A stretch of DNA of 64,000 nt from an uncultured Bacteroidota bacterium (GTDB lineage Bacteria > Bacteroidota > Bacteroidia > UBA4408): contig CAIMGI010000187.1 of NCBI GenBank assembly GCA_903840505.1, forward strand, positions 18,812-82,811, written 5' to 3'. How positions within the stretch are numbered: the stretch's first letter is position 1; each line of letters begins with the position of its first letter. Of this stretch, positions 18,738 through 26,207 are shown in pieces. The position numbers and the translations under genes were made by a program. The notes beneath the pieces are model-generated. The model saw nothing but the letters and a program-made list of their open reading frames with translations, ran no database searches and was not told where the DNA came from.

Positions 18738-21700
18738 TTATTTTGTAACGTTATTAAAATAATCCGTTACCTTATTTTTATAAAAAGTATTTAACGAAGG
18801 AGGGACAGTTTTTAACAATTCGGTTTCTTTCATTTTAAGTCTGTTATACTCATTAAACAGATTAAGGTTACTAAAATTTTCAATATTCGACTCTTTCGAC
18901 TCTCTTTTTTCGTCTTGATCCCTTTCTCTCTCTGCTTTTTCAGACTCTAACAATCTTGTTAAAATTTCTTCTTGGCGCATCATTGTTTCTTGAGTAATGG
19001 TTTTATTTACCAAATCGGTCTCGGTTTTCTCCATCTGCTCGGCCAATTTTTGCATGTTTCCGTTGCCTTGTTTGCCATCTTTGTTCATTTCATCACCCAT
19101 TTTCTGTAATTCTCTTCTGAGGGCCTCCTGTTGGGCTGCTAAGCGTGCAAATTGCTCACTGGTACTATTCTTTCCGTTTTTACCATCCTTACCATCTTTG
19201 CCTTCCTTGCCATCTTTTTTTCCATTCGGATTTTTCATTCCCTCCTTCAGCTTCGCAATTTGCTCGTTTATTTGTTGTTGCATCGATTTCATAGTAGATG
19301 CGGAAGGTTTTTGACCTTTTCCACCCGGTTTTTTACAACTTCCACTGCCTTCTTTAGCAGGTTTTTTTTGCATTTGCTGTTGCATTTGATTGAGTGCTTC
19401 GCTTAACATCAAGGCAAGGTTATTTACACCTGTCATCACATATTGTTGTCGCCCTGCTGCCACTTGAGTTTGTCTGTCGGCAATGTCGGCTATCGCTTTT
19501 TCCATATTGGCGTTTATTTCGCTTATTTCGCGGTTTACCACTGCCGATATTTGTGGCTGACGTTTACTCAATGCAAACAAGGAATCTTCTATCATTTTCG
19601 AATCGTCCTTTATTTTCTTTTGCTGACGAGCAATTTCAACGTATTTTGGATTAACCCTGTCAATATTATTGGTTTGTTTCATAAGCTCTTCTTGAGCAAA
19701 AGAAACATTGATGAGGTTTTCTAATATTTCACGCAGGGCATTCATATCCTCTTCTTGCTCTTGTTGTTCCATTTGCTGCTGCATACTTTTCATTTCCTGT
19801 GAAAGCTGATCCATTTTTTCACCCGCCTTTTTTTGTGATTTTGCAGCTTGTTGTTTTTTGCTTTCGCTGTTGTTTTTATTCTCGTTAAGTTGCTCTGAAC
19901 TTTTTTCTTGTTCCTTCGATATTTCTTGTTGCAATTCCTCGGTGTTCTTCATTTCATTGGGTTGTTCCAACTCAGCATTTTTCTTTTTTAAGTCTTCCAA
20001 CTCTTTTTTTACCTCGTCAAACTCTTTGTTTAGCTTTTCTTGTTCTTTGTTCAGCTCCTTGCTATCACTTTTCTTCTCTTCCGTTTTCTCTGCTAATTTT
20101 TTTTGATCTTCTGCCAACTTATCCAATTTTTCGGTTGTTTCACCCATCTTTTTCTCAAATTCCAACTGCTTGAAAATTTCCAATGAACGGTCGAGCTCTT
20201 TTTCCATATCCTTGTTATCCAACTTCATTTTTTCCAATTGCTCCTGAATTTTCTCTTTGTCCATTTTACTGAGCAATTTCTCCAATTCTTTGAATTTCTC
20301 TTTCATTTCATCGGTCATAATTTGCTCAAAAAGCTTTTCTAACTGTTGCTGTTTCTCCAACAATTTTTCATCAGGTTGTTTGAATTCATTTTCCTTTTTG
20401 TTGTTCAAGCTGTTCTGCTTTTCAATGTTTTCAACATCTTTTTGCAATTGTTTTTGTTTTTCAAGAAGGTCTTTTATTTTTTTCAATTCATCGTAGCTCA
20501 GTATCTTTTTCTCCAACATTTTTTGATTGATATCCGCTAGTTCTTTTTGTAAGTCCTTTGCTTTCTGTATACTTTCTTGAATGTCCTTTTTTAGCTCCTT
20601 GTTGTTTTTCTCGCTGTTCTTTGCCAATTCACTTAAAGTAGGGGCCTTGTATACCATTCTTTGTGTGCGAGCCGATTTGTTGCCATTTACACCATCGTTA
20701 TCAAATACTTCAAAGTAATATTCTATTTCATCGCCCGGTTGAATGTTAAATGAAGTAAGATCCCAATAGTGGAAAAAATTGTCTTGTGTAATTTGTTTGT
20801 TTAGTCCTAGTTGCTGACTCACCAAACGCCCTGATACAGATTTGTTGGAATCATTTTCAGTTAAAAATTTATAATTGAAAGCAAGTTTTGAAAACCCGTA
20901 ATCGTCTTTAATTTGACCTTTGAAATAAATGCGTTGGCTTGATATAGAATCGGGACGTTCTTCCACCTGAATGCTTGGGTACATATCGGGAATTACATTT
21001 ATGGAATAGCTTATTGAGTCGCCACTTTTAAGAAATTCATTTGCGGTGGTGATGTTATACGTTTTATTATTAAACAGTTGTGATGAATATGAGAAAACAT
21101 TGTTGTTAGGGTGGTCCAATGTAATAATGGTATCAACAAAACCCATTCTTAAAATACGTGAATGTTGTGTGTTGAATGTCCAGCGTACTTTTGTGCCGGC
21201 AGGAATTACCATATCTCCGGTGTTTGAAAGGACTTCGTCTTTTTTACCGACATAGTTCGGGTAATCTAATTGTACTTGAAAGCCAAGCATCAATGGGTTT
21301 GGAAGGGCTGTAATTTCATATTCCTTCGAATAATATCCATCAGCAAACAAACGAAAGCGAAGTGTTTTTTGTATGTTTTTGAACACATAACGAAATTTCA
21401 CCGCATTTTCTTTGTTGAGAGAATATTCGTTTTCGCCCACCTCAATGTAAGCGTTTGCAGGGATTTCATTTCCGCTTACTTTAATGTTTAATTCAAAATC
21501 TTGTTGCTGTATAGCCTGCATCGATTTATTGAGTACCTCAAAGCGAAAAGGGGACTCTTTTTCGTAATACACGGTGTGGTTGAACAGTCTATTGCTTGGG
21601 TCGGTGATGAGGTTAGGAAAAAATGTAAGCAAACAAAGTAAAATAAACACAGGAATAAAGGCATATTTTACATATTTCGAATTTTCCTTTAAGTCAATAG

Positions 21701-22133
21701 CCGAAGTAAAAGGAATTGGCTTTAGTTCGGCAATACGTTGATTGATGCTTGCTTGTACAAGGTTGGCATTGTAGTTAGATTGCTGTTGAAGTTGCAATAC
21801 GTTTAGCAGCTTATCTTGCACATTGGAAAAATGGCTGCCGATAATTTCGGCTGCTTGCTGATGAGAAATGATGTTGCCAAATCGATTAAGTTTAAGCAGA
21901 GGAATAACAATTAGGTTAATCAGTATACCAATGTTGAGTAAGATAAAAAGGTAGAAGAGGATGGTACGTGTAGTTACTCCAAAATGGGCAAAATATTCGA
22001 GAAGGGTTACCGCCAAAAAGAAAAGAAGGAGTGAGGATATAGCATACAATACTCCCCGAATGAGTTGGTTTTTGTAATACTTTCGTATAAACTCATCCAG
22101 TTTTTGTATTAGTATGAGATAGTTGCTTGCCAC
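18738..22133 (-). CDS. Large membrane-anchored coiled-coil protein (DUF4175-like)
   Basis: 1131 aa, starting at a GTG. The N-terminal region carries three predicted TM helices and a beta-rich domain. A ~550-aa K/E/Q-rich coiled coil follows, with a G/K-rich tract (GKKDGKEGKDGKDGKNGKN). The family assignment is from memory and is tentative. Confidence 0.55.
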   Translation of the reverse strand: MASNYLILIQKLDEFIRKYYKNQLIRGVLYAISSLLLFFLAVTLLEYFAHFGVTTRTILFYLFILLNIGILINLIVIPLLKLNRFGNIISHQQAAEIIGSHFSNVQDKLLNVLQLQQQSNYNANLVQASINQRIAELKPIPFTSAIDLKENSKYVKYAFIPVFILLCLLTFFPNLITDPSNRLFNHTVYYEKESPFRFEVLNKSMQAIQQQDFELNIKVSGNEIPANAYIEVGENEYSLNKENAVKFRYVFKNIQKTLRFRLFADGYYSKEYEITALPNPLMLGFQVQLDYPNYVGKKDEVLSNTGDMVIPAGTKVRWTFNTQHSRILRMGFVDTIITLDHPNNNVFSYSSQLFNNKTYNITTANEFLKSGDSISYSINVIPDMYPSIQVEERPDSISSQRIYFKGQIKDDYGFSKLAFNYKFLTENDSNKSVSGRLVSQQLGLNKQITQDNFFHYWDLTSFNIQPGDEIEYYFEVFDNDGVNGNKSARTQRMVYKAPTLSELAKNSEKNNKELKKDIQESIQKAKDLQKELADINQKMLEKKILSYDELKKIKDLLEKQKQLQKDVENIEKQNSLNNKKENEFKQPDEKLLEKQQQLEKLFEQIMTDEMKEKFKELEKLLSKMDKEKIQEQLEKMKLDNKDMEKELDRSLEIFKQLEFEKKMGETTEKLDKLAEDQKKLAEKTEEKKSDSKELNKEQEKLNKEFDEVKKELEDLKKKNAELEQPNEMKNTEELQQEISKEQEKSSEQLNENKNNSESKKQQAAKSQKKAGEKMDQLSQEMKSMQQQMEQQEQEEDMNALREILENLINVSFAQEELMKQTNNIDRVNPKYVEIARQQKKIKDDSKMIEDSLFALSKRQPQISAVVNREISEINANMEKAIADIADRQTQVAAGRQQYVMTGVNNLALMLSEALNQMQQQMQKKPAKEGSGSCKKPGGKGQKPSASTMKSMQQQINEQIAKLKEGMKNPNGKKDGKEGKDGKDGKNGKNSTSEQFARLAAQQEALRRELQKMGDEMNKDGKQGNGNMQKLAEQMEKTETDLVNKTITQETMMRQEEILTRLLESEKAERERDQDEKRESKESNIENFSNLNLFNEYNRLKMKETELLKTVPPSLNTFYKNKVTDYFNNVTK

Positions 22134-22204: not shown

Positions 22205-23665
22205 TTATCGAATTTTAGCCTCTAACCAATCGTTGTAGTTAATTATATCCTTATCGGCAGCCTCTTTTGAGGATATGATGGATAAGAACTCCGTGATGTT
22301 TTCATTTAGGTTTTTATTCTTAACCAAATTGTTTGCGTCAAGCATTAGTGCCATAATTTCCGCTAACAGCTTTTCTCTTTTATAATCTTCGTCTTGCAAA
22401 ATGGTTGAAAATGTTTTGCTCGTTTGAGCAAGGAGTGTTTCCAAATATTCCATATCGTTTAATTCAAAACGAATAATCATTTCGGCAAAGGAGAATTTTA
22501 AACGCATAGCCTCATCCAAGTTTTCGTAACTTTTTTGAAGACGCATTTTAACAATGTTTTTAAGTGCTTCCTTGTATTTTTTTAAATCGAATGAGATTAC
22601 GGCAAGGTTGCCATAAATGAAAACAATGTATATGGGCAATTGCTTTATGGCTTTCTCTTCTTTAGCTTGTTCTAATATTTCAATGGCTTTTTCTTTATCG
22701 CTTGCAGTATAATTTATCACAAGGGAATTGTAGTAATAAAATAAATATTTTTCTTTCATCAATCCTGAATATTCATCCATTGCTTCCTTCAGAAGGTTGG
22801 TGTATTGGAGCGATTGTTTAATTTTCCCATTTTTGAACAATGAGTTAATGAGGTAGGTAAGCATTTGCAGCTTCGTTTCGTGGTTCGATTTGTTAAACAA
22901 GTTTTCTTTTAGAAAAGAGCGATAGGTTGTGAGTAGGTATTTTTCGAGGGATTTGAAGTCGTGCTGTTGCAGTAATATACGACTCAATGCGTGGTATATT
23001 TTGAAGCGTAATTGTGGACTTTGTTTTATATCGTCACTCTGGGTGTATTCATTGATTGTTTTCTTCATTACTTCCAACACTTGTGTATTGTGTGCCGAAA
23101 AATTTTGAGACACCAATATTCGGTACCTTAAAACTGCTAACACATCATCAATTTCTTGTAAACGAAGTAATTGTTTTCTGTTTTCTCTGCGTTTCGAAAT
23201 AAATTGTTCGGGGTTTATGGAGTCTGTTTCTTGCGCCAGCTTTATGTATTCCCCATATATTGTATCGGTAAGTTCGGCATTGTGTAATTCGATCGATTTT
23301 TTTTCGGCTTTTTTTAAATAATAAAAGGCAATATCAAACTGCCGTTTTTGCTGGTATATGCGCGAAAGGGCCAAGTAGTTTTGCGATTCGGCAAAAGCAT
23401 TGTTGTCGAAATAATGTACACTCATGCTTTTCCCTATGTCCTCTAAAAGCCTATTCTTTAGTCGGTACAGCACATTTTTATCATCGTGATTGTAAAGCTG
23501 TAAGCAAATTTTTTCTTCATCGTATTCCGGAAATTTTTTCCGAACAAGGTCAAACAGTTGAACATCTTTTCGGTCGTTGTGGTTGTTGGTTCGTGCGAGG
23601 TAAAGTTTTAAATGACGCACTTCTTCTTTGCTCATTAATCCGATTACTTGGTTAAATATATTCAT
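22205..23665 (-). CDS. Hypothetical all-helical (TPR-like) protein
   Basis: About 487 aa from the internal ATG (MNIFNQ). Composition is helical and repeat-like, with no signal peptide. It sits 71 bp upstream of the DUF4175-like gene on the same strand. Confidence 0.5.
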   Translation of the reverse strand: MNIFNQVIGLMSKEEVRHLKLYLARTNNHNDRKDVQLFDLVRKKFPEYDEEKICLQLYNHDDKNVLYRLKNRLLEDIGKSMSVHYFDNNAFAESQNYLALSRIYQQKRQFDIAFYYLKKAEKKSIELHNAELTDTIYGEYIKLAQETDSINPEQFISKRRENRKQLLRLQEIDDVLAVLRYRILVSQNFSAHNTQVLEVMKKTINEYTQSDDIKQSPQLRFKIYHALSRILLQQHDFKSLEKYLLTTYRSFLKENLFNKSNHETKLQMLTYLINSLFKNGKIKQSLQYTNLLKEAMDEYSGLMKEKYLFYYYNSLVINYTASDKEKAIEILEQAKEEKAIKQLPIYIVFIYGNLAVISFDLKKYKEALKNIVKMRLQKSYENLDEAMRLKFSFAEMIIRFELNDMEYLETLLAQTSKTFSTILQDEDYKREKLLAEIMALMLDANNLVKNKNLNENITEFLSIISSKEAADKDIINYNDWLEAKIR

Positions 23666-23759
23666 TGTTTTGTTTTTGAATGCGTAAGAAAGATACGACT
23701 TTTTTTTGAAAGGCTGCACTTTTGTATATACATTTACTGTATTCAAAAATGCACGGATT

Positions 23760-24449
23760 ATGAAAAAGTTAAAAACGCTACTCTTTTGGTCTTTTATTTT
23801 AGCTTCAATGCAGCTAAAAGCACAGGTAAACATTGGGATTGATACCGTTTACAATTTTTTAACCCAAGTTAATAATTACCAAACGGTAAGTTATACCGTT
23901 CATATTAAAAACTATGGCCCTGATACCTTGTTTAATGGAAACTTAACTTTGTATACAGCTGTAGATACAGGAAATGCACTACATACAATTAAAACGGACA
24001 CTTCGCTTTCCGGCATTGCAGTTTTTCCACCTAACACAACTTTAACAATAAATGATAGCATCAGTTTTGTTGGCGGTGGCGGAAATACATTTAGGTTGAA
24101 TGGCGGTAATGTTATTGTTATATGGCCACAGGCTATAGGAGCAAATCTTATTCAATCGTATACAAATACTGTTTTAATAACGCACATTGAGGGAATAGGC
24201 GAAATTAGAATTGAGAAAAACAGTATAGCAGCTTGGCCTAATCCAACTAAGGAAAAGGTATTCTTAACAATTTCGGATCCAAAAACTACTATTGAAAGGG
24301 TAAGAATGTTCGATTCAAAAGGAGCCGAAGTGGTATATGAAGAGCATTCTAAAATATTGGATGTTAAGCAACTACCAAGCGGTGTGTATATTCTTTCGGC
24401 TACTTTAAGCAGCGGGGAAGTAAAAACAATAAAGGTAATCAAGGAGTAA
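23760..24449 (+). CDS. T9SS C-terminal-domain (type A sorting domain) secreted protein
   Basis: Signal peptide (MKKLKTLLFWSFILASMQLKAQ). The C-terminal ~80 aa (AAWPNPTKEKVFL...LPSGVYILSA...KVIK) match the Por secretion-tail pattern. Confidence 0.75.
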   Translation: MKKLKTLLFWSFILASMQLKAQVNIGIDTVYNFLTQVNNYQTVSYTVHIKNYGPDTLFNGNLTLYTAVDTGNALHTIKTDTSLSGIAVFPPNTTLTINDSISFVGGGGNTFRLNGGNVIVIWPQAIGANLIQSYTNTVLITHIEGIGEIRIEKNSIAAWPNPTKEKVFLTISDPKTTIERVRMFDSKGAEVVYEEHSKILDVKQLPSGVYILSATLSSGEVKTIKVIKE

Positions 24450-24451
24450 TT

Positions 24452-25372
24452 TTATCCCTTCTGATAATTTTGCATTTCCTTTGGGAATAAACCTTTTTGA
24501 GGCTTTCTTCTGCGTTTTCTTTTCTTGGATTTGTTTTTCGATTTTTTGTATTCAAAAGTATCATTTGTTGGAACAACCACATCTTTTCTGCCTTTCCAAA
24601 ATCGCCATTGTAAGCGTTTTTTGTGCCTTTCTTTTTTTGAACTGGAAAAGCTGCTTCCTGTTTCGGTTGCAATAACCACATCCTTTTTTTCTTTCCAAAA
24701 CAGTAAACGAGTCTTCTTTTTATGACGTTCTTTTTTTGAACTCGAAAAGCTATTGTCGGTGTTGGTTGCAATAACCACATTTTTTTTACCTTTCCAGAAT
24801 TGCCATTGCCATTGTTTTTTATGGTGTTCTGTTTTTGAACCGCTTCTTAAAGGATTGCCTTTTACTTTTCTAGAACTGCTTCTGTCTCCCAATGTCATTT
24901 TTACATCGGTATTTTGTTGTTTCTTTTTTCCAAACCTTACAGAAAATCCATTTTTATTTTCTTTTCCTTTTCCTCCTTTTGTTTCTGCATTTAGTTTATT
25001 TGAACGTACGCGTCTAGATTTACTCCTGTCGCCCAAGGTCATTTTAACATCGGTATCTTGTGTTTTGTTTTTTCGAAGTTTTAGTGAAAATGGTCTTTTG
25101 TTTTCTTTTGCCTTCCCACCTTTGTTTTCGGCCCTTAATTTATTGGACCGTACACGTTTGGATTTACTTCTATCTCCCAATGTTATTTTTACATCGGTAT
25201 CCTGTTTTTTGTTTCTGCCAAAGCGAACAGAAAAAGGTCTTTTATTCGATTTTACTTTCTCCTTTTTAGTGTTGATTTTAAAATTAGAAGAATCTGAAGA
25301 TTTATTCTTATTAATAGCACAGGAATGGATAAGTATAGCACATAAAAGAAGAATTGCTACGGGGTATCGCAT
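24452..25372 (-). CDS. Highly basic tandem-repeat lipoprotein
   Basis: Signal peptide plus lipobox (LLLCAILIHSCA). Three copies of a ~48-aa K/R-rich repeat (KRPFSVRFG.NK.QDTDVK.TLGDRSKS.RVRSNKL.AE.KGGK.KEN) are followed by three copies of a ~37-aa repeat (SFSSSKKERHKK...FWKGKK.VVIATNTDN). The DNA shows the same tandem periodicity. Confidence 0.65.
   Translation of the reverse strand: MRYPVAILLLCAILIHSCAINKNKSSDSSNFKINTKKEKVKSNKRPFSVRFGRNKKQDTDVKITLGDRSKSKRVRSNKLRAENKGGKAKENKRPFSLKLRKNKTQDTDVKMTLGDRSKSRRVRSNKLNAETKGGKGKENKNGFSVRFGKKKQQNTDVKMTLGDRSSSRKVKGNPLRSGSKTEHHKKQWQWQFWKGKKNVVIATNTDNSFSSSKKERHKKKTRLLFWKEKKDVVIATETGSSFSSSKKERHKKRLQWRFWKGRKDVVVPTNDTFEYKKSKNKSKKRKRRRKPQKGLFPKEMQNYQKG
24490..25290. 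repeat. Coding tandem DNA repeats (3 x ~111 bp, then 3 x ~144 bp) inside the basic lipoprotein gene
   Basis: Near-identical repeat units are visible directly in the sequence, for example ...ggttgcaataaccacat...ttccaaaa... and ...ctcccaatgtcatttttacatcggtat.... Confidence 0.8.
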
Positions 25373-25451
25373 ACTGGTTTTGAATATCCTTATTATAAAA
25401 GAAACCCTCACTTACTGTAAGCGAGGGTTTCTTTTATATTTAATTTATGTG

Positions 25452-26207
25452 TTATCTATTACCGCTTTGCTTATCCCTCATTTCTTGTCTTCTTTTGGCA
25501 CGTTCTTCGGGAGTCATTGAGTTTTGGTCGGCACCATTCATTCGACTACCACCAACAGGTGCGCCCTCTGTTTTTGTGTAGCCTGCAGGAATATCAAATA
25601 CTTCTTTGGCAATTGATTTTTTTTCAATTGTAACTAATTCCATTGTCATATCACCATCTCTCTTCCCTTTAACTATATATTTTACGGGAAATCCATCCAC
25701 TCCGGCATCAATAAGCGATTTTTCAATTTTGCTAATGTTTACTCTTTGGTTATTATTATAAGCTTCTTTGTAATTTTGGTAGTCTACAATTTCTTTAGTA
25801 TTCCATAATTCAGTAATAGTACCGTCATTAACAGATTTTACGAGAATGTGTTTACAAGTGTATCCCAATATTTTTTCTTCTCCTAAATTCTCCAAGGTAT
25901 AATTTCCGTTTTCAGTATCTTTTTTCACAGGACCTTCACTGTAGGTTCTGTAGGTTTCATTTATAGTAAATAAAACTTCAGGATTGTCCATTTTTGTTAT
26001 GGTTATCATCTTCATAGGCTCAGGCAATTGTGGTATAGAAACAGTCATATCTGTTTTTTTACCTATGCTTGAAAAATAAGATGTAACACTACCGTTTGCG
26101 CCCATAGCGGATGAAAATTTCATTTCAATAACAGTTCCATTTTGAGCGAAAAGCTGCGAAGTTGCAAATAGGAATGTAAAAAGGGCTGTAAAAATGTATT
26201 TTTTCAT
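25452..26207 (-). CDS. Secreted hypothetical protein
   Basis: Signal peptide (MKKYIFTALFTFLFATSQLFAQ) and a basic C-terminal tail. It resembles Bacteroidota DUF-type periplasmic proteins, but the function is unknown. Confidence 0.55.
   Translation of the reverse strand: MKKYIFTALFTFLFATSQLFAQNGTVIEMKFSSAMGANGSVTSYFSSIGKKTDMTVSIPQLPEPMKMITITKMDNPEVLFTINETYRTYSEGPVKKDTENGNYTLENLGEEKILGYTCKHILVKSVNDGTITELWNTKEIVDYQNYKEAYNNNQRVNISKIEKSLIDAGVDGFPVKYIVKGKRDGDMTMELVTIEKKSIAKEVFDIPAGYTKTEGAPVGGSRMNGADQNSMTPEERAKRRQEMRDKQSGNR

Follow-up and report, generated by a model that had tools for sequence, protein, structure and literature searches.

In Escherichia coli, the outer-membrane lipoproteins LpoB and RcsF carry long disordered, lysine-rich tethers that lead to a folded domain whose partner is known. 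In mycoplasma lipoproteins of the Vlp/Vsa type, a lipoprotein signal precedes charged low-complexity units repeated in tandem and in frame; according to reviews, these repeats are near-identical and differ in number from clone to clone. The neisserial lipoprotein NHBA has a folded C-terminal domain together with a largely disordered region and a polybasic, arginine-rich motif. It is exposed on the cell surface, and its arginine-rich motif is reported to bind polyanions, heparin among them (bioRxiv 10.1101/395988). Here we describe gene X, which lies on the minus strand of a 64,000-nucleotide stretch of DNA (hereafter the window; contig CAIMGI010000187.1, positions 18,812 to 82,811, assembly GCA_903840505.1) from an uncultured Bacteroidota bacterium of the lineage UBA4408. 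Its product is an extremely basic repeat protein that, by analogy, seems most like either the polybasic disordered lipoproteins represented by NHBA or the tethered lipoproteins LpoB and RcsF, without sharing sequence with them.

Like NHBA, the gene X product is probably a lipoprotein with a largely disordered region and an arginine-rich polybasic motif. In contrast to NHBA, it has no surface-export signal and no detectable folded domain, its basic character extends along the whole chain and over two repeat families, and there is neither sequence similarity nor a family match between the two. With the Vlp/Vsa-type lipoproteins it would share a lipoprotein signal that precedes charged in-frame repeats, but its repeat units, at 56-76% DNA identity, diverged long ago, and all 15 same-species contigs read have the same number of them. 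The likeness to LpoB and RcsF would consist of an N-terminal lipid anchor, a long unfolded basic periplasmic segment and a conserved distal element that possibly serves in docking. Where those proteins end in a folded domain, gene X has only an invariant 17-residue C-terminal peptide on a chain modelled as unfolded throughout, and there is no homology.

We propose that gene X encodes a membrane-anchored, periplasm-facing, disordered polycation that binds anionic components of the envelope multivalently, and assign a probability of roughly 0.4 to this chain of inferences as a whole. Its parts differ in strength, and we take them up below in turn.

Results

Coding status and selection

Gene X is almost certainly a protein-coding gene, an orphan restricted to one lineage and held under selection. 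A sister species, represented by contig L007 and the identical L013 (CAMAVS010000002.1, the metagenome-assembled genome (MAG) that is the GTDB representative), carries an ortholog in the corresponding place, after porW/sprE and a gene for a DUF4412 protein on the downstream side. The ortholog has 258 amino acids and is 83% identical outside one 48-residue gap. Differences between window and sister are distributed over codon positions 1, 2 and 3 as 22/25/85. The ratio of the proportions of non-synonymous and synonymous differences (pN/pS) comes to 0.16 for the annotated frame. Four other frames exceed 1, and the antiparallel shadow frame, at 0.27, is interrupted by stops. By the Nei-Gojobori method, the ratio of non-synonymous to synonymous substitution rates (dN/dS) is 0.10-0.12 at a synonymous divergence (dS) of 0.8-0.9, and the frame has stayed intact over a dS of ~0.85 and through a 144-bp in-frame indel. 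Within the species, nine sequences from different samples hold 14 polymorphic sites, 13 of them synonymous third-position changes; the sole non-synonymous polymorphism replaces V5 by I or L in the signal peptide. The codon-position bias, the pN/pS values and the polymorphism pattern together establish that the annotated frame encodes a protein on which purifying selection acts. An initial annotation, made from the sequence of the window, had postulated an extremely basic secreted repeat protein encoded by a real open reading frame (ORF), and had named a non-coding region as the alternative to check; the minus-strand ORF and its coding pattern of substitutions bear out the former.

An antisense ORF of 255 amino acids (24753-25520, plus strand) was rejected because frames on the opposite strand show pN/pS above 1 or stops. 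GTG 25411 was likewise rejected as a start codon: it lies inside a hairpin, and there is no start codon there in the sister species. On the ENA metagenome contigs shown, gene callers mostly predict the 306-residue product, with a longer upstream start (320 residues) on two of them.

Two contigs, L016 and L018, share 10 clustered substitutions in nucleotides 13-105 of gene X, nine of which are synonymous, and show a 3-bp length difference upstream; the remainder of the gene is nearly identical to that of the other strains (L018 has one more synonymous change). The cluster looks like an imported recombination tract. As for the sister species, the label of the L013 record, 'Chitinophaga pinensis isolate ME-08apr19-307', looks like a placeholder, and the closest named relatives of the neighbouring genes are only MAGs of Bacteroidia or Bacteroidota bacteria.

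Composition and repeat architecture

The mature chain of 288 residues contains 31.8% lysine plus arginine, close to the ~30% first estimated, and 8.7% aspartate plus glutamate, which gives an isoelectric point of 11.1 and a net charge of +67. Among window ORFs of at least 100 residues, counted from the first methionine, only an overlapping out-of-frame ORF comes near this basic content. The coding strand is 45% A. The polybasic tail includes a KRKRRRK stretch and is 0.86 identical between the two species; its last 17 residues, K290-G306, are invariant.

Most of the chain consists of two families of tandem repeats. The three A units of 48 residues follow the consensus KxPFSVRFGKNKxQDTDVKMTLGDRSKSxRVRSNKLNAExKGxKxKEN; in this 48-residue register, the final 9 residues of A3 are the opening residues of B1. 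The three B units of 33 residues (99 bp) follow the consensus SKKEHHKKxxQWRFWKGKKDVVIxTNTxxSFSS. Shifting the protein against itself yields 61 matches in 96 residues at lag 48 (shuffle mean 9.1, maximum 21) and 37 in 66 at lag 33 (shuffle mean 6.2, maximum 15), so that both periodicities exceed by far what a composition so skewed would yield. In the DNA, Tandem Repeats Finder detects a 144-bp array of 2.6 copies with 75% matches and no indels (score 435) and a 99-bp array of 2.8 copies with 72% matches (score 276). The three repeats of about 48 residues described in the initial annotation are thus confirmed, and the second family indeed has three units, but with a period of 33 residues in place of the ~37 claimed. 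A common origin of the A and B units was considered and rejected: hhalign gave a probability of 8.8% with only the tail of A aligned to the head of B, and Smith-Waterman z-scores against shuffles lay between -1.0 and 2.0. We therefore treat them as two families.

Each A unit has two stretches in which hydrophobic or aromatic residues alternate, F-x-V-x-F (FSVRF) and V-x-I-x-L (VKITL), and each B unit has two such stretches, W-x-W-x-F-W (WQWQFW) and VVI. Across both species, 18 columns are invariant over the five A units and 10 over the six B units. These columns, together with the invariant C-terminal 17-mer, indicate that the constraint is sequence-specific and not compositional alone.

Age and stability of the repeats

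The units of gene X were initially described as near-identical at the DNA level, and recent expansion and length variation had been suggested on that basis. None of this is supported. Pairwise DNA identity is 0.76 between A1 and A2, 0.63 between A3 and either of them, and 0.56-0.72 among the B units. Orthologous DNA identity between window and sister is 0.90 for B1, 0.86 for B3, 0.78 for B2 and 0.76 for A3 against the sister A2, so that for four of the five sister units the ortholog is closer than any paralog in the same gene (0.56-0.76). It follows that the arrays predate the species split, at a dS of about 0.8-0.9, and were not homogenised later, which refutes recent expansion and leaves a single event between the species as the extent of length variation. 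The exception is the single sister unit that corresponds to the position of A1 plus A2 in the window, with an identity of 0.78 to A1 and 0.81 to A2. In the MAFFT alignment, the 48-residue block absent from the sister spans residues 73-120, across the A1/A2 boundary, and the single sister unit looks like an A1/A2 hybrid. As read from the alignment, the gap is the signature of one unequal crossover, by which one lineage would have gained a unit or the other lost one.

Copy number differs only between the species, with three A units in the window and two in the sister. All 15 same-species contigs read, which come from several independent studies (the BUCK21, GROS21, MEHR18 and LIAN20 series and other ENA assemblies), carry gene X at 921 bp without a frameshift, with the caveat that minority or rare length variants may be hidden in short-read assemblies. 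Several poly-A runs of 7-8 bases occur in its lysine codons.

Export signals and predicted disorder

The N-terminus of gene X (MRYPVAILLLCAILIHSC) is organised like a Cys-type signal peptide that ends in LIHSC, with an n-region M-R-Y and a hydrophobic core PVAILLLCAILI before the cysteine. The arginine of the n-region, the core and Cys18 are conserved in the ortholog, whereas a second cysteine of the signal peptide, C11, is not. Set against the lipobox [LVI]-[ASTVI]-[GAS]-C, the I-H-S-C of gene X fits at -3, -1 and +1 and misfits at -2, where it has histidine. Elsewhere in the window, signal peptides of the Cys type end in LISC, LFSC, IFSC, FVAC and CCSC, the xxSC type being common, and PorW/SprE, a member of a lipoprotein family encoded in the same window, has a polar asparagine at -2 (LNGC), which suggests that position -2 is relaxed in this organism. 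We consider the gene X product to be probably lipid-modified on Cys18; the lipoprotein assignment of the initial annotation is accordingly kept as likely on account of the signal peptide and its conserved cysteine, and is short of certain given the atypical histidine.

In Bacteroidota, the lipoprotein export signal (LES) that directs lipoproteins to the surface reads C-X-K-(D/E)2, SDDDD or SDDFE, with two or more acidic residues (PMC5080379). No such signal follows Cys18 of gene X, where positions +2 to +7 read A-I-N-K-N-K and the first acidic residue is a single aspartate at +10. Searches for a C-terminal domain of the type IX secretion system (T9SS) (PF18962/TIGR04183 or type B) gave no match to gene X, while a neighbouring gene was found in the same searches with an E-value of 2.7e-9. 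By the known rules, the lack of an acidic LES and of a T9SS C-terminal domain places the protein on the periplasmic side, and we lean slightly towards a periplasm-facing product. The surface exposure originally suggested is not supported.

Mean normalised hydropathy of the mature chain is 0.321, against a charge-hydropathy boundary of 0.497 for the same net charge, which places the chain deep in the natively unfolded region. An AlphaFold2 model built from the single sequence has a mean predicted local distance difference test score (pLDDT) of 38, with secondary structure in the signal peptide and a short C-terminal turn and otherwise a few three-residue helical turns only.

Distribution

When 1.84 billion cluster representatives were searched exhaustively with HMMER, only two matches came back, both of them fragments. 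One is a near-identical truncated copy of gene X (P0034); the other is an ORF of 71 residues without a signal peptide on a 603-bp contig (L012) of the BUSI22 sample series. On that contig, 152 bp (243-394) are 87% identical to the A3/B1 junction while the flanks are unrelated, and the stretch is possibly a relic, a mini-gene or a chimera made in assembly. A word-indexed homology search found no match and missed the near-identical fragment P0034 as well, so that its negative outcome with a low-complexity query is not trustworthy alone. An exact cluster look-up with the product also returned nothing, although gene calls on contigs from 55 blocks of public assemblies include exactly this 306-residue protein, the contigs read being from ENA metagenomes.

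Profile searches, proposed initially for the repeat unit, were run with gene X and recovered no known family, which leaves gene X an orphan. Pfam, NCBIfam, PHROGs and PADLOC gave no significant match, a profile search of the PDB nothing at E<=1, and a scan of JGI metagenomes with the gene X alignment nothing. The only profile matches lay below cut-off: DUF7625 (PF24620) reached 18.1 bits against a gathering threshold of 27 over 19 residues, and the BPTD_2524 lipoprotein family (NF046053) reached 14.6 bits against 50 over the signal peptide only. Membership in either was rejected. A literature search for lysine-rich repeat lipoproteins found nothing comparable.

Identity of PorW falls from 99% to 89% in the sister and 70% in the next relative, and then to at most 49%. 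In the 70% relative, the order gldC-gldB-outer membrane protein-porW-DUF4412 is kept and is followed by a 203-bp gap and a fatty-acid desaturase gene, without gene X; it is also absent from the more distant DUF4412 loci. Its absence at the syntenic site of the next relative and from those loci indicates a young gene, of about genus level, that is not a conserved part of the T9SS/gliding neighbourhood. In the collections searched, gene X is confined to two closely related uncultured freshwater Bacteroidota species.

Genomic neighbourhood

Gene X was initially placed between a T9SS cargo gene and another secreted protein, and both neighbours are as described (Table 1). The stop codon of the convergent T9SS gene lies 2 bp from that of gene X, and the T9SS gene is absent in the sister species.

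Table 1. Coordinates of gene X, of its parts and of adjoining features in the window
Feature	Positions	Strand	Remarks
Gene X, complete	24452..25372	(-)	ATG at 25372, TAA stop at 24452-24454; 306 aa; from ORF list and translation
Signal peptide and putative lipobox, residues 1-18	25319..25372	(-)	MRYPVAILLLCAILIHS followed by C; read from sequence; ILIHSC kept in ortholog
Post-Cys linker, residues 19-43	25244..25318	(-)	AINKNKSSDSSNFKINTKKEKVKSN; no acidic export signal, compared with LES consensus (PMC5080379)
A1 unit, residues 44-91	25100..25243	(-)	
A2 unit, residues 92-139	24956..25099	(-)	
A3 unit, residues 140-178	24839..24955	(-)	diverged; 50-54% aa identity to A1/A2
B1 unit, residues 179-211	24740..24838	(-)	SKTEHHKKQWQWQFWKGKKNVVIATNTDNSFSS
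B2 unit, residues 212-244	24641..24739	(-)	
B3 unit, residues 245-277	24542..24640	(-)	
Polybasic tail, residues 278-306	24455..24541	(-)	SKNKSKKRKRRRKPQKGLFPKEMQNYQKG; last 17 residues at 24455-24505
Strong stem-loop, then UUUUAUAAU	25394..25438	(-)	between DUF4412 stop and gene X start; RNA fold -28.6 kcal/mol, z -8.2
DUF4412 protein, upstream neighbour	25452..26207	(-)	251 aa, signal peptide; PF14371, E 2.6e-42; identical to P0001
Small protein with T9SS type A C-terminal sorting domain, convergent	23763..24449	(+)	PF18962 (Por_Secre_tail), E 2.7e-9; TIGR04183, E 1.4e-9

The stem-loop upstream of gene X has a 21-bp stem and ends 21 nt before the ATG. The sister species has a hairpin at the same place (L007 6766-6811; -28.9 kcal/mol, z -8.6) in which stem and loop sequence differ while the structure is conserved. 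The built-in terminator scan of the window did not list 25394-25438, though folding shows the hairpin clearly. It probably serves the DUF4412 gene as its intrinsic terminator; gene X would then be either a transcription unit of its own, with a promoter that overlaps the hairpin, or dependent on read-through. A sigma-70-like TATAAT (10/12 match) is listed near gene X, and Bacteroidota promoters differ from that consensus. Rfam found one tRNA only in the window, well away from gene X.

Between the two species, the identity of the DUF4412 protein is only 59%, against 83-99% for the products of the flanking gldC, gldB, porW, DUF4175 and asparaginase genes, an unusually fast evolution for a gene kept beside porW in three relatives. 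A literature search for DUF4412 found no papers, and a scan of genome contigs with this neighbour returned nothing.

Downstream of gene X, window positions 22205-24449 are strain-variable (contigs L001-L006 and L014-L021). The gene with the T9SS domain is called at 229, 213 or 166 residues depending on the strain, and the tetratricopeptide repeat gene beyond it at 486, 513, 504 or 406 residues or split into two ORFs; the sister species has neither of the two. The DUF4175 protein (1131 residues, 18738-22133, minus strand) has a long, coiled-coil-like low-complexity middle rich in lysine, glutamate and glutamine and is 91% identical between the species. Its gene is called at 1131 residues in most contigs and at 802 in L001 and L006.

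Discussion

The model that we favour for gene X begins with export via the signal peptide, after which lipid would be attached to Cys18 and the product would stay attached to the membrane on its periplasmic side. The mature chain of 288 residues might then exist as a natively unfolded polycation of +67, arranged like beads on a string: six amphipathic motifs, three from the A and three from the B units, could act as interfacial stickers, with lysine- and arginine-rich spacers between them. Multivalent electrostatic binding could be directed at phospholipid head groups, at carboxylates and phosphates of peptidoglycan or lipopolysaccharide (LPS), or at an acidic glycan in transit, and the invariant 17-residue C-terminal peptide might offer a specific site for docking. 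The charge alone makes polyanion binding plausible, and we put forward a role as a polyanion or membrane binder only tentatively.

Several points weigh against this model. The bacteria in which the LES rule was worked out belong to Capnocytophaga, Bacteroides and Flavobacterium, outside the lineage of gene X. The AlphaFold2 run was made without an alignment, so that its low pLDDT is weak evidence for disorder. The ligand class is suggested by charge only. Expression of gene X is predicted from sequence, and a strong, conserved, terminator-like hairpin stands immediately before its start codon. Finally, the protein may be soluble, given its atypical lipobox next to a good site for signal peptidase I.

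Such a soluble polycation, periplasmic or secreted, would arise by signal peptidase I cleavage after SCA (SCA/I), without a lipid anchor. The site satisfies the -3/-1 rule, histidine at -2 lies outside the usual lipobox residues (PROSITE pattern PS51257), and other lipoboxes of the window carry hydrophobic or small residues there. Yet the LIHSC cysteine is kept in both species while C11 is not, and PorW/SprE combines membership in a lipoprotein family with its own polar residue at -2, which makes a soluble form of gene X unlikely. We are similarly doubtful about a lipoprotein exposed on the surface that would bind extracellular DNA, anionic polysaccharide or negatively charged particles in the manner of NHBA. 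The net charge and the KRKRRRK tail would suit such a binder, as would the position of gene X beside a T9SS cargo gene and porW/sprE, and NHBA offers the precedent of a surface lipoprotein whose arginine-rich region is reported to bind heparin (bioRxiv 10.1101/395988). Against it stand the missing acidic LES and T9SS C-terminal domain, the lack of the T9SS cargo neighbour in the sister, by which the adjacency is not conserved, and the absence of gene X past porW-DUF4412 in the next relative.

The repeats themselves invite other explanations. Gene X could encode a lipid-anchored polyprotein precursor from which proteolysis at dibasic sites would release cationic, tryptophan-rich, antimicrobial-like peptides (the B units, KKQWQWQFWKGKK). 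Its cationic Trp/Phe-rich modules are indeed repeated and flanked by K/R runs, and we take the B units to resemble Arg/Trp-rich antimicrobial peptides such as the lactoferricin core. There is, however, no adjacent protease, transporter or immunity gene and no PADLOC match, the A units are not tryptophan-rich, and the constraint also covers the linkers and the C-terminal peptide, so that we regard a peptide precursor as very improbable. A contingency locus, that is, a size- or phase-variable repeat lipoprotein of the mycoplasma Vlp type that changes by slipped-strand mispairing, would fit the tandem in-frame repeats, the poly-A runs in lysine codons and the A unit by which the species differ. 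It is largely refuted and scarcely tenable: the repeat DNA is too diverged, at 56-76% identity, for efficient slippage, all 15 same-species contigs have the 921-bp gene without a frameshift, and the closer relationship of orthologous than of paralogous copies in four of five sister units excludes concerted evolution. That the gene X reading frame is spurious and lies in repetitive, A-rich intergenic DNA, or that gene X is a functionless gene in decay, could be argued from its lack of homologs beyond one small clade, from the 45% A of its coding strand and from the hairpin immediately upstream. This explanation is refuted by the substitution pattern and can practically be dismissed: third positions take most of the changes, pN/pS is 0.16 between species, synonymous outnumber non-synonymous polymorphisms 13:1 within the species, and the frame survived both the dS of ~0.85 and the 144-bp in-frame indel.

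A bolder extension of the membrane-anchored model is improbable in our view but merits description. Gene X might be a recently born, genus-restricted envelope protein in which a lipid-anchored, fully disordered chain of +67 bears twelve amphipathic strand-like motifs that would fold or assemble only on an anionic scaffold. This scaffold could be a membrane face, LPS, peptidoglycan or nucleic acid, and the protein could staple the envelope electrostatically or trap polyanions. If true, this would be an envelope protein of a kind not yet described, as well as a clear example of a gene born when A-rich sequence was duplicated internally, with a repeat history that can still be read.

Gene X is in itself an ordinary kind of object, a gene for a lineage-specific low-complexity envelope protein, with a charge that is unusually extreme. 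Since no tie to any system, type IX secretion and gliding included, has been demonstrated for it and it occurs in two uncultured species only, its wider importance is modest. If the product is made, gene X would add a sequence orphan to the few bacterial envelope proteins that combine a lipid anchor with an entirely disordered, polycationic chain. The purifying selection that acts on it is a warning against writing off low-complexity ORFs of this sort in uncultured freshwater Bacteroidota as artefacts of annotation.

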